IMG/VR virus record: IMGVR_UViG_3300048762_000330
DNA from: a virus
Reading direction: 5' to 3' (one strand)
Length of the DNA stretch: 64,000 nucleotides
Shown here: positions 5,058 through 23,116 of the stretch, piece after piece
Layout of the letters: the number at the start of each line of letters is the position of its first letter
How positions within the stretch are numbered: position 1 is the stretch's first letter
Position numbers and translations under genes: made by a program
The notes under the pieces: model-generated
Seen by the model: the letters and a program-made list of their open reading frames with translations, nothing else
Database searches by the model: none
What the model was told of the DNA's origin: nothing

Positions 5058-5119
5058 ACTGAGCCGAAAGTAAGGGTTACCTTCTCATAAAAAGTCTCCT
5101 TACAAAATATTTGCTCAGT
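5058..5119 (+). ncRNA. Y RNA-like RNA 2
   Basis: ACTGAGC/GCTCAGT terminal stem; GAGCCGAAAG...GGGTTACCT...AATATTTGCTC. Confidence 0.7.
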
Positions 5120-5126
5120 ATTTGAG

Positions 5127-5224
5127 TTTTGGATCGAGCCGAAAGGGTAGGGTTATCTCATACCATTTTAATTGAATGCCAGGAAACTGGCTAGCTCCTT
5201 CTCGAATATTTGCTCGTTCCAAAA
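5127..5224 (+). ncRNA. Y RNA-like RNA 3
   Basis: TTTTGGATCGAGC/GCTCGTTCCAAAA stem; GAGCCGAAAGGGTAGGGTTATCTCA; GCCAG-GAAA-CTGGC hairpin; pyrimidine tract; AATATTTGCTC. Confidence 0.75.
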
Positions 5225-9050: not shown

Positions 9051-9115
9051 GATCGAGCCGGAAGATTTGGGTTATCTTATAAAAATCAAACCTATGTCAA
9101 ACAATTTGTTCGGTC
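9051..9115 (+). ncRNA. Y RNA-like RNA 4
   Basis: GATCGAGC/GTTCGGTC stem with G-U covariation; GAGCCGGAAG...GGGTTATCT...ACAATTTGTTC. Confidence 0.7.
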
Positions 9116-9128
9116 TAAATATAGAATT

Positions 9129-9204
9129 GGGCCTGTAGTTTATTACACGAAAACACGTCCCCTGCAAGGATGAGAGTCGGGAGGGAAGCCCGGTGGGTCC
9201 ACCA
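9129..9204 (+). tRNA. tRNA-Ala(UGC), non-canonical
   Basis: 76-nt cloverleaf ending ACCA; G3:U70 pair; loop CCTGCAA; T-loop AGGGAAG; D-loop lacks GG. Confidence 0.75.
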
Positions 9205-9474
9205 GTTTAGAAAGGGTCTTGAGCCAGCAAGCCTTTCCGAATAATCTGGCTATGCAAAGGGTCTGGCTAATTTACGCAGAATGCAAAACAGACCCAGGCT
9301 AAACGCCTTGTAGTACAACGGCGCATCGGTACATCCGGTGCGTCGTTGAAAAGAGTATGATTATGACCTACTTTACAATGATTATGACCTACTTTACATT
9401 GAATTGGCGATTTACCAACGGAACATAACCGCTGTTGATAACCAGCGAGTTGTGTTCTTCACATTGATACACAC

Positions 9475-9550
9475 GGCTGGTAAGCTAATCTAGTGAAAGT
9501 ATCGGTCTGAAAAACCGAGGAGTTGAGAGCGTAACTCAAACCAGCCACCA
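9475..9550 (+). tRNA. tRNA-Phe(GAA), non-canonical T-loop
   Basis: GGCTGGT/ACCAGCC + ACCA; TCGGT-CTGAAAA-ACCGA; T-arm TTGAG-AGCGTAA-CTCAA. Confidence 0.85.
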
Positions 9551-9553
9551 TAT

Positions 9554-9631
9554 AGGGGACGAGTGTTACATAGACAGCATTACAGCCTCCAAAGCTGATA
9601 GGTCGGGCCGCAAGAGTCCGGTCCCCTGCCA
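9554..9631 (+). tRNA. tRNA-Trp(CCA), non-canonical T-loop
   Basis: AGGGGAC/GTCCCCT + GCCA; CAGC-CTCCAAA-GCTG; T-arm CGGGC-CGCAAGA-GTCCG. Confidence 0.8.
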
Positions 9632-16592: not shown

Positions 16593-17108
16593 ATGAAGAA
16601 ACTCATTTTTATCTTGCTATTTATTTTCTGGGCTGCTTTCGCACAAAATCAAACTCCATCATATGACAAGTATAGCGTGGGCGTCAGCGTGGGATCTACA
16701 TTACTAAGAGAGCCGTTTTCTCCACGACTTTACACTAGTGCAACATTCGGCTACAAGTTCGCAGCAAATTACGATAAGTTTTTTGACAAGGCATACTTCA
16801 CATTCTCGCATTGTGGCGTTGATAAAGGTTCAACCGGCTATGTGATGGGATTGCAGCGCACAATGATAAATGAAAGAGACCGTATGGGACTCATTGGCGT
16901 TGTAGAAGCCGGTACGACTCGAAGCAGTGTGGGTGTATTTCGACCTGAGTTTGCTGTTGGTTTGGGTGTGGGATTCGATTTTAACGGAAACCCATATCCA
17001 AAATTTTTGAACAAGACTACGCTTTCTCTTGTGCCGAAACTCGTTGAAGTCCCTGGAAGACCGGTTTCATTCATACTTCCGATTGGCTTGACAAAGACGT
17101 TCAAGTAG
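16593..17108 (+). CDS. exported, beta-strand-rich protein
   Basis: signal peptide MKKLIFILLFIFWAAFA; alternating hydrophobic strands; terminal F. Confidence 0.5.
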   Translation: MKKLIFILLFIFWAAFAQNQTPSYDKYSVGVSVGSTLLREPFSPRLYTSATFGYKFAANYDKFFDKAYFTFSHCGVDKGSTGYVMGLQRTMINERDRMGLIGVVEAGTTRSSVGVFRPEFAVGLGVGFDFNGNPYPKFLNKTTLSLVPKLVEVPGRPVSFILPIGLTKTFK

Positions 17109-17116
17109 GGTATACT
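17088..17116 (+). promoter_or_regulatory. sigma70-type promoter of ncRNA cluster 2
   Basis: TTGACA-17nt-TATACT. Confidence 0.75.
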
Positions 17117-17128
17117 GAAATTTGTGGC

Positions 17129-17345
17129 GTGTGGCCGCAAGGCGAAGCCGGAATAAGCGCTGTTCGGGTGTGAAAGCATATATATTGGGGCGACAAAGGG
17201 CAGAATGGTTACCAAACGTCTGCTGCTGAACGAACGATGGTTCCAAGGGAGCCGGGAGAGAAGTCTCCAATCGTCATCGTTTACTAAGACAAATCGCCCA
17301 CCTTTGGTAGAGGGACCCGAATCCAATGAGGTTCGGCACTCACAC
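17129..17345 (+). ncRNA. structured RNA, 6S-like architecture (tentative)
   Basis: GTGTG/CACAC, GCCGGA/TTCGGC and TTCGGGT/ACCCGAA stems; AT-rich bubble; GGGCGA/TCGCCC stem; branched tip. Confidence 0.45.
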
Positions 17346-17350
17346 TTTTA

Positions 17351-17430
17351 AGGCTGGCGACGGACAGGCGGGTATTCGGTCGCTCCAGGTTCCAAGGATC
17401 GTAAACGGAGAAATCCGTTACGCCAGTCTT
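17351..17430 (+). ncRNA. unassigned small structured RNA
   Basis: AGGCTGGCG/CGCCAGTCT closing stem; AACGGA-GAAA-TCCGTT; GGTTCCAAGG shared with the preceding RNA. Confidence 0.45.
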
Positions 17431-17579
17431 ATTATTTTGACTTTTTGGTGTGGGAAGCGTGCAACAAATTGGTAGGAGTTGGGATTAAGTTCCCAACATA
17501 GCGTTCAGGGAAAGCGGGTAGTCGGATAGAGTGAACGTACTCCGACATTTTTAAGCTGTATAAATAGGAATTGGATTAT

Positions 17580-17686
17580 GTCTTTCAGCCTACATATGTA
17601 GCTCCGTCCTCTGACACCGGAAACGGGATGTCACGGTGACCACAAGTCGGACACTTCACATCGGGGTTCGATTCCCTGGAGAGCCA
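17580..17686 (+). ncRNA. tRNA-like RNA lacking a normal anticodon loop
   Basis: canonical T-arm CGGGG-TTCGATT-CCCTG; acceptor-like GTCTTTC/GAGAGCC with one mismatch; TGACA-CCG-GAAA-CGG-TGTCA in place of an anticodon; no CCA. Confidence 0.4.
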
Positions 17687-17696
17687 AAATTTTTGT

Positions 17697-17791
17697 TGGA
17701 CGGTCTTCTAATTTGGTAAGAAAACGCACTGTGGTCCGTAAGGACAAAATTAATGCGTAGAATTTGGGTCCGAATCCCAACTGTCCAGCCA
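17697..17791 (+). tRNA. tRNA-Asn(GUU) with an 18-nt insertion in the anticodon loop
   Basis: TGGACGG/CTGTCCA + GCCA (G73); D-arm TTCT/AGAA; ACGCA/TGCGT stem closes a 25-nt loop CTGT[GGTCCGTAAGGACAAAAT]TAA; T-arm TTGGG-TCCGAAT-CCCAA. Confidence 0.75.
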
Positions 17792-22314: not shown

Positions 22315-22404
22315 GGACGAATGGGTGAGTCTGGTTAAAACCAATTGCCTGTAAAGCAATCCTCCTTCGGGAGTACAAAGGTTCAAATCCTTTTTCGTCC
22401 ACCA
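22315..22404 (+). tRNA. tRNA-Tyr(GUA) 1
   Basis: GGACGAA/TTCGTCC + ACCA; ATTGC-CTGTAAA-GCAAT; long variable arm with TTCG loop; TTCAAAT. Confidence 0.95.
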
Positions 22405-22414
22405 TCTTTCTTTT

Positions 22415-22503
22415 GGCGCATTAGACCGCTAAGGAGACGGCACCCGCTGTAACCGGGTTGTCCTTTATGGACCCGAGAGGTTCGATACCTTTATGCGCCA
22501 CCA
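22415..22503 (+). tRNA. tRNA-Tyr(GUA) 2
   Basis: GGCGCAT/ATGCGCC + ACCA; ACCCG-CTGTAAC-CGGGT; long variable arm; TTCGATA. Confidence 0.92.
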
Positions 22504-22835
22504 AATTCTTTACCAAATATTGATTATATTTGGGGTACAAAGTAAGAGTGGAGTTATTTTTTGGTTTGGGTAATAAAAATATTTGTCCATTTCCACAAAT
22601 GACAAATAGAAAATCATATTTGAGATCCAACCCACCTTTATGCACAAAATTTTTCTTGCTATTTCCGCCTTTTATACTGAGACCAACTATATAAAATCCA
22701 CTTTTAGATATTTGCGTCGTAGTCTTCACCTGGACCTTTTTCAAGCCATCTTCAAACTCCGCAACGAGATCGTAGTCCTGGCTGTCGGTCAACGGAATGC
22801 ATACCGGCATTCCTTGCGAACAGAGATATTCACGG
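22421..22835 (-). pseudogene. PD-(D/E)XK (group I intron-type) endonuclease, 5'-truncated
   Basis: YLCSQG.PVCIPLTDSQDYDLVAE...VQVKT...YDFLFV; N-terminus replaced by antisense of another gene; reads into antisense tRNA-Tyr2. Confidence 0.65.
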
Positions 22836-23074
22836 AAAAGCCGAAAGTGATGATCGAGCGTGGCGAAATGGCATCCGTCGCAATCCATTTGGTCGGAACA
22901 AAAGGACAAGAGATTGAAGACAACGACTACGAATCGATGGCAAAGATGGTTATCGATGCATTCAAAAAGCATCGGGAAGTAATGAAGGAGCGCTCCTTCG
23001 CACCAGCCACTATCGGCCCAAAGAATGTTCCTGCTCTTCAAGACCTTCGGAAAGCACAAATTGATGGAATGTAA
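22835..23074 (+). pseudogene. 3' fragment of a hypothetical gene
   Basis: protein-like TEKPKVMIERGEMASVAIHL... has no own start; upstream is antisense endonuclease. Confidence 0.4.
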
Positions 23075-23116
23075 GAATAGGCACAAAGCTATTTAGTTTT
23101 TCGACTAAATACCATT

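Follow-up and report, generated by a model that had tools for sequence, protein, structure and literature searches.

A tRNA-Asn(GUU)-derived gene whose anticodon is split by an 18-nt insert is the last element of a ~700-nt ORF-free stretch in the window (the whole piece of viral DNA that was analysed, 64,000 nucleotides from IMG/VR record IMGVR_UViG_3300048762_000330). Its parts are as follows.

17697..17791, + strand: tRNA-Asn(GUU)-derived gene, 95 nt (ARAGORN -i; RNAfold cloverleaf), with encoded CCA at 17789-17791, G73 and U1-A72
17697..17732, + strand: 5' part of the gene, running from the acceptor strand through the D arm, in which G18 G19 are retained, to the 5' strand of the anticodon stem (ACGCA) and the loop bases C32 U33 G34 U35
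17733..17750, + strand: 18-nt insert (ARAGORN -i), with an equivalent placement at 17732-17749, the anticodon being split at 35/36 or 34/35
17734..17745, + strand: GUCC-GUAA-GGAC hairpin, 4 bp and a GNRA tetraloop, -6.0 kcal/mol alone (RNAfold)
17751..17791, + strand: 3' part of the gene, comprising U36 A37 A38, 3' anticodon stem, 5-nt variable loop, T arm (loop UCCGAAU, C55), acceptor strand, G73 and CCA

The insert-bearing gene is not detected by default ARAGORN, and in an 800-nt slice the Rfam tRNA model RF00005 (gathering threshold 29 bits) leaves it unmatched even at E <= 10. With introns allowed, ARAGORN reports a tRNA-Asn(gtt) with an 18-nt intron, GGTCCGTAAGGACAAAAT, at 17733-17750 and, once the insert is deleted in silico, the resulting 77-nt cloverleaf with the loop CTGTTAA is called as tRNA-Asn by the default program. 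All the exon stem pairs are intact (21/21), with ARAGORN giving seven pairs in the acceptor stem (U1-A72 and one G-U included), four in the D stem and five each in the anticodon and T stems. U1-A72 together with G73 is a signature of bacterial tRNA-Asn, while the T-loop UCCGAAU has C at position 55 where U is near-universal. The anticodon loop as encoded is 25 nt long, and a 7-nt loop with G34 U35 U36 arises solely after removal of the 18 nt. A repeated T at the boundary allows two equivalent placements of the insert, both of them within the anticodon (34/35 or 35/36) rather than at 37/38. The minimum-energy fold of the 95 nt computed by RNAfold is a cloverleaf that carries the GUCC-GUAA-GGAC hairpin in its loop (-27.2 kcal/mol, z = -2.3). 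The original prediction of a complete cloverleaf with U1-A72, G73 and CCA, originating from a true bacterial-type tRNA-Asn, is borne out by the sequence of the body, by ARAGORN -i and by RNAfold, as are the tetraloop hairpin in the insert (RNAfold) and the 25-nt loop that upon excision gives CTGTTAA, i.e. Asn GUU (ARAGORN on the insert-deleted gene).

Chance is a poor source of such calls, with 30 block-shuffled windows (1.92 Mb) yielding two ARAGORN -i hits, none of which had a short intron. The insert has the support of a second assembly, in which Logan contig SRR35911405_355898 (run SRR35911405) shows 100% identity over 5014 nt, insert included; this assembly probably derives from the same reads, which leaves room for a minority of insert-less genomes. 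The two assemblies agree base for base over 5 kb, and the insert-bearing tRNA-Asn gene at 17697-17791 (+) is confirmed as real, with every element described for it present.

The insert itself has few distinguishing marks. When 18-mers are shuffled or drawn at random, about 6% of them form an anticodon arm of equal or greater stability (p about 0.06), so that its hairpin is weakly non-random, and the idea that it is a designed element was not retained on the strength of that p value. A repeat or a copy of nearby DNA was likewise considered and rejected, the insert being single-copy in the window and showing no above-chance match to the tRNA's own exons. Its exact 18-mer has one other match in IMG/VR, in coding DNA, which was judged to be due to chance. 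Searches for homologues with or without the insert, which the original prediction had called for, found none in IMG/VR, JGI metagenomes or GTDB genomes: a T-arm pattern retrieved a single, unrelated tRNA-Lys from IMG/VR, a T-arm plus acceptor pattern had no match in the JGI metagenomes and neither did an anticodon arm with any 0-30-nt insert in the GTDB genomes. The proteins flanking the tRNA-Asn gene are orphans with no IMG/VR match, the upstream one matching only itself among 5.8 billion clusters and the downstream one (89 aa) having no family and no Atlas lead. When the DNA of the window was compared with 50,697 phage records, the only match was one of 59 nt to Myxococcus phage Mx1, in a different RNA. 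In the absence of a homologue, there is no sign of selection on either the insert or the exons.

The tRNA-Asn gene is preceded by a series of non-coding elements.

17088..17116, + strand: sigma70-type promoter TTGACA-17-TATACT, 11/12 consensus, at the start of the non-coding stretch
17123..17560, + strand: structured non-coding RNA, ~440 nt, separating the promoter from the tRNA-like genes, ORF-free and without an Rfam match
17472..17546 (core 17500-17540), + strand: copy of a conserved, putatively pseudoknotted RNA motif, 83% identity to Myxococcus phage Mx1
17559..17566, + strand: T4-type late-promoter consensus TATAAATA, 14 nt upstream of the tRNA-shaped RNA
17580..17686, + strand: tRNA-shaped RNA, 107 nt (sequence, folds), ending 10 nt before the tRNA-Asn gene

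The octamer TATAAATA occurs seven times in the window versus 2.5 expected and, by analogy with T4 biology, is likely to act as a late promoter. The 107-nt RNA next to the tRNA-Asn gene forms 6/7 acceptor-stem pairs and a mini D hairpin, has a T arm of canonical type, GGGGTTCGATTCCC, and lacks CCA; Rfam gives it a weak partial match confined to the T arm. Its anticodon arm is replaced by ~55 nt of hairpins, one of them GAAA-capped. Since this RNA has no anticodon loop, non-decoding tRNA shapes are a feature of this operon and, given the insert in the tRNA-Asn gene, both adjacent tRNA-derived genes are altered at the anticodon arm.

The motif upstream of these two genes, which was found via the 59-nt Mx1 match, is ~85 nt long with an invariant core, CAUAGCGUUCAGGGA ... 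UAGAGUGAACGUAC. Besides the window, it is present in Mx1 (L002 2480-2570), in three IMG/VR contigs (L004-L006) and in 19 metagenome contigs (L010-L028), and it was not found in 185,579 GTDB species genomes. At the loci with tRNA calls (four have none), it usually occupies a gap the size of a tRNA, with a tRNA on either side, in the dense arrays of large phages. Compensatory changes are seen at 16 of the 25 proposed pairs and 94% of cells pair, versus 40-50% in slid controls. Its segment CGUUCA can pair with UGAACG in the loop of the last hairpin, which would create a pseudoknot, although the search pattern fixed the sequence of this helix and covariation is unreadable there. The motif has no Rfam family and its core sequence was not found in the literature searched; on the alignment of these copies, it can be regarded as a new covarying RNA family, even if the copy of the window shows no clear 5' strand for the first helix. 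In a survey of 22 other phage tRNA arrays, no tRNA (0/229) has a short anticodon-loop insert. The ARAGORN 'intron' calls in these arrays were discarded as Leu-type RNAs with a ~70-nt variable arm, four of which, misread as tRNA-Arg with a 46-nt intron (L013 4236-4379, L014 918-1061, L018 11465-11608 and L025 920-1063), sit directly 3' of the motif. In one of the IMG/VR contigs, of 363 kb, the tRNA array includes a gene for a complete bacterial RNase P RNA of class A (L006 8153-8517, - strand; 299.5 bits).

The window is phage DNA of 42% G+C with many small genes, in which Pfam domains identify a T4 gp53 baseplate protein, IF3, a DNA methylase, a dUTPase, a tyrosine integrase, Ro60 and a CCA-adding enzyme, as well as homing-type nucleases (HNH in four ORFs and one GIY-YIG/NUMOD3 gene). 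By its tail protein, the closest phages are T4-like viruses with about 25% identity; since this is the best that is found, the phage has no close relative, and the sequence places it as a distant T4-like myovirus. Its host is bacterial, because both tRNA-Tyr genes have a bacterial-type long variable arm, in line with the sigma70 promoters and IF3. Asn codons occur at 55 per 1000 in this phage. No second tRNA-Asn is present in the available 81 kb, and no further tRNA in the flanks. The other tRNAs of the phage (Phe, Tyr, Ala and Trp) have normal 7-nt anticodon loops, that of tRNA-Ala with C33 (by eye). Some of these tRNAs are otherwise odd: tRNA-Phe (9475-9550) has the T-loop AGCGUAA, with A54-U58 in place of T54-A58, and no G18; a tRNA-Trp-like cloverleaf (about 9554-9630) has the T-loop CGCAAGA; and a tRNA-Ala-like gene recognized by eye (about 9129-9205) has G3-U70 in addition to C33. 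An RNase P-like RNA guessed by eye at 9130-9470 received no Rfam support, the odd tRNAs lying there instead, and low-stringency ARAGORN calls of a tRNA-Val with a 657-nt intron and of Asp and Ser tRNAs inside ORFs were judged false. A PTH2-type (archaeal/eukaryal-type) peptidyl-tRNA hydrolase is encoded about 10 kb to the right of the window end (L029 13049-13435). Two dissimilar tRNA-Tyr(GUA) genes stand in tandem at 22315-22404 and 22415-22503, the second of which is overlapped antisense by the 3' end of the following gene.

22421-23086, - strand: I-Ssp6803I-like PD-(D/E)XK homing endonuclease (PF11645, E = 7.6e-11; PDB 2OST is the best solved relative, E = 6e-4)

I-Ssp6803I, the solved relative, cleaves a tRNA gene that has no intron, in the DNA of its anticodon stem-loop. 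The nuclease genes nearest to the tRNA-Asn gene are 2 kb and 4.7 kb away, the latter distance being that of this endonuclease gene.

A Ro60 gene (TROVE and vWA domains in Pfam) is found in the same phage, 14 kb from the tRNA-Asn gene. Near it, at 5058-5224 and 9051-9115 of the window, are Y-like RNAs that share the helix GAGC-C-GAAAG / UUUGCUC with a bulged C and a G-U pair, a layout that we take to be that of the Ro-binding site of Y RNAs. Neither these RNAs nor the tRNA-Asn gene match Y_RNA or YrlA in Rfam at gathering score. In the hairpin of the insert the second C is paired rather than bulged, and GAGC-C-GAAAG/UUUGCUC has no counterpart in the tRNA-Asn gene. The insert does contain the 7-mer UGGUCCG, presumably the sequence of the 5' strand at the Ro site of vertebrate Y RNAs; a Ro60 site was nonetheless rejected, with partner strand and bulged C both missing, and the match is treated as a coincidence. 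The link to Ro60 repair that the original prediction had envisaged comes down to a proximity of 14 kb, the insert having no Ro-binding helix of the type seen in the Y-like RNAs of this phage.

How such an insert might be removed was assessed against each of the known classes of intron. The catalytic core of group I introns (P3-P9) needs about 200 nt or more. The insert, in contrast, has 18 nt, ends in A or U with no terminal G and contains no P1 partner for CUGU, and no Rfam intron or ribozyme family matches the tRNA-Asn region at E <= 10. Because it is too short, has no terminal G and matches no Rfam family, it is not a group I or II intron, as had been anticipated. As for proteins, a bulge-helix-bulge (BHB; two 3-nt bulges on opposite strands of a 4-bp helix) could not be drawn by manual pairing for either pair of splice sites (after gene bases 35/53 or 36/54), the four bases 5' of each would-be bulge being unpairable (C-A, A-A and G-A clashes). 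The sole 4-bp helix, GUCC/GGAC, is closed by a tetraloop and its use in a BHB would put both cuts inside the insert. The two boundaries of the insert share no motif. A role of its loop as guide target of the phage's other non-coding RNAs was considered and dropped, duplex energies being no better than those of shuffles. The search for RtcB, RNA ligase, polynucleotide kinase and EndA-type domains, which had been suggested together with protein splicing, returned none among the 107 ORFs of the window or in ~17.5 kb of flanks, i.e. in ~81 kb of contiguous phage DNA comprising the window, 2.4 kb to its left and about 15 kb to its right (precomputed Pfam hits being used for the flanks). With no BHB geometry, a site other than 37/38 and no splicing enzyme in ~81 kb, a protein-spliced intron is not supported.

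Since no known splicing route fits the insert, the gene probably encodes a non-decoding tRNA-shaped RNA. The scenario that we favour, tentatively, is that this RNA is an unspliced mimic or decoy of tRNA. The tRNA-Asn(GUU) gene of a distant T4-like phage would have taken up an 18-bp insertion inside its anticodon that is, most likely, not removed. Two promoters, the sigma70 one at 17088 and the late one at 17559, would supply the transcript. Like any tRNA, the RNA would be released from the non-coding operon by RNase P and 3' trimming, and a 95-nt tRNA-shaped RNA would remain. Its anticodon arm would be a long irregular hairpin (5 bp, U-A and G-U, an internal loop and 4 bp capped by GUAA). The displacement of U36 from G34 U35 would leave this RNA unable to decode and, probably, beyond charging by asparaginyl-tRNA synthetase. 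With the U33-G34-U35 face of the loop retained, it might act together with the neighbouring tRNA-shaped RNA as a look-alike that occupies a factor reading tRNA-Asn or GUN loops, such as an anticodon nuclease. The unspliced state, the stability and the decoy role of the 95-nt RNA are what we infer from an intact tRNA body with the Asn identity marks U1-A72 and G73, from the two promoters upstream, from the lack of a BHB, of an Rfam intron or ribozyme match and of a splicing or repair enzyme domain in the 107 ORFs or flanks, and from the presence, 10 nt upstream, of a neighbour in which a GAAA-capped hairpin stands in place of an anticodon loop. The phage is rich in tRNA functions (Ro60, CCA-adding enzyme, Y-like RNAs and tRNAs with rewired T-loops), which would be in accord with such a role. 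On the other hand, no homologue exists in the databases searched, the hairpin is barely above random inserts (p about 0.06) and we know of no RNA decoy of a tRNA nuclease that has been described. The frequent Asn codons and the normal loops of the other tRNAs, which make it seem that working decoders are wanted, would fit better with splicing or a recent loss, and the neighbouring mimic could be an older wreck. Documented phage tRNAs whose anticodon-loop changes let them escape anticodon nucleases (van den Berg et al., 2023; PMC10264068) count in favour of the scenario. The original suggestion of a nuclease-resistant decoy stands as a viable idea with some support from the adjacent RNA at 17580-17686 that has no anticodon loop, the present evidence being compatible with a decoy and a dead gene alike.

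Such a dead gene, a phage tRNA-Asn gene recently disabled by the insertion and giving an RNA without a role, is a possibility that we regard as rather unlikely but that accounts for several observations. The insertion is confined to a single lineage, has no homologue and forms a hairpin that is not significantly non-random, and C55 in place of the near-universal U55 could be early decay. The window is also crowded with homing-type nucleases (HNH in four ORFs, GIY-YIG/NUMOD3 and the I-Ssp6803I-like gene at 22421-23086 (-)). The insert could then be filler DNA from double-strand-break repair in the DNA of the anticodon loop, and it could have been kept since it destroys the target of a homing endonuclease that reads the DNA of the tRNA anticodon stem-loop. 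However, no nuclease gene is adjacent (the nearest being those at 2 kb and 4.7 kb), the insert is not repetitive, and 21 of the 21 exon stem pairs are intact, so that any inactivation must be very recent. Dead DNA is usually deleted from phage genomes, and there is no intact second tRNA-Asn in 81 kb.

Less probable still is a true mini-intron, in which proteins would excise the 18 nt and rejoin the halves, yielding a functional tRNA-Asn(GUU). In its favour are flawless exons and the heavy use of Asn codons with no other tRNA-Asn in 81 kb. Excision would bring back the canonical CUGUUAA, but any insertion into a normal loop restores that loop on removal, so that this carries no weight for splicing and reveals no more than the origin of the gene as a normal tRNA-Asn. 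The enzymes could be a phage or host endonuclease together with RtcB or a T4 Rnl/Pnkp-type ligase encoded outside the ~81 kb; RNA ligase and kinase genes are common in T4-like phages and most of the genome lies beyond the 81 kb. The preference of RNase E would fit the 3' boundary, where AA is followed by UUA, although the two boundaries have no common motif and a colicin E5-type cut between G and U would also strike the GUAA loop and leave the wrong 3' end. The non-canonical position (34/35 or 35/36), the lack of a BHB, of guide-like complementarity and of a ligase, kinase or splicing-type endonuclease in 81 kb, and the score of 0/229 among the tRNAs of 22 phage arrays all seem difficult to reconcile with excision. 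There is a published precedent in the 'enigmatic introns' of Lak megaphages (PMC6784885), but those inserts are of 70-100 nt and often tRNA-shaped, i.e. of a different design. The more specific proposal that the mini-intron is cut out by a BHB-free protein endonuclease-ligase route, which would amount to a new kind of bacterial tRNA splicing and possibly keep the tRNA inactive or nuclease-proof until needed, is quite improbable. Finally, although the support for the insert is contig-level, the identity of two assemblies over 5 kb and the cleanness of an 18-bp insertion without end repeats, which is atypical as an assembly error, make it extremely doubtful that it is an assembly artefact or a minority allele absent from most genomes of the population.

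Each of these possibilities would be of consequence. Self-splicing introns are, to our knowledge, the only kind of tRNA intron known from bacteria and their viruses. Were the insert spliced, it would reveal an RNA-processing route of a previously unknown kind, by which a phage could hide a tRNA from host anticodon nucleases. Were the RNA an unspliced decoy, an RNA sponge of tRNA shape would for the first time be known to take part in the conflict over tRNAs, while a scar would show how tRNA genes are lost in nuclease-rich phage genomes. In any case, with its Ro60, Y-like RNAs, CCA-adding enzyme, elbow-rewired tRNAs, tRNA mimics and conserved motif, this phage offers a compact system for the study of tRNA-centred conflict between phage and host.

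How the insert-bearing tRNA-Asn gene relates to known systems can be summarized as follows. Bacterial group I introns occur in the anticodon loops of tRNA-Leu, tRNA-fMet and tRNA-Ile, and the present case resembles them in that the insertion is within the anticodon after U, with an I-Ssp6803I-like gene 4.7 kb away; it differs in that 18 nt cannot hold the core and in having no terminal G, no P1 and no Rfam match. Archaeal tRNA introns can be shorter than 20 nt, and the insert shares with archaeal and eukaryal introns, which depend on a BHB and on EndA and RtcB, a small size and a location in the anticodon loop, whereas it has no BHB, is not at 37/38 and occurs in a phage with a bacterial host and no EndA or RtcB in ~81 kb. 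The phage tRNAs that escape host anticodon nucleases (van den Berg et al., 2023; PMC10264068) are, like the present one, altered precisely in the anticodon loop and found in a phage with other non-standard tRNAs. Their alterations are reported to be point changes that keep both the 7-nt loop and decoding, while here 18 nt have been inserted and decoding is impossible without their removal.

YrlA is a bacterial Y RNA, a tRNA mimic that is bound by Ro60 (Chen et al., 2014; PMC4201824). What the two share is a tRNA shape that does not decode, in a genome with a Ro60 gene. YrlA opens at the anticodon end, where its 5' and 3' ends pair into the Ro stem, and is closed on the acceptor side, whereas the tRNA-Asn RNA, which has no bulged-C Ro helix, is open at the acceptor end with CCA and closed at the anticodon end. 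The 'enigmatic introns' in tRNAs of Lak megaphages are of about 70-100 nt and in some cases themselves tRNA-shaped; their site is immediately 3' of the anticodon, and different cohorts carry identical copies (Devoto et al., 2019; PMC6784885). Here, the insert is of 18 nt, consists of nothing but a tetraloop hairpin and an A-rich tail, interrupts the anticodon itself and is not known to occur a second time. What the two have in common is an anticodon-loop insert in a tRNA of a large bacterial virus that belongs to neither group I nor group II, comes without a known splicing route and is found only by a tRNA finder with introns allowed.
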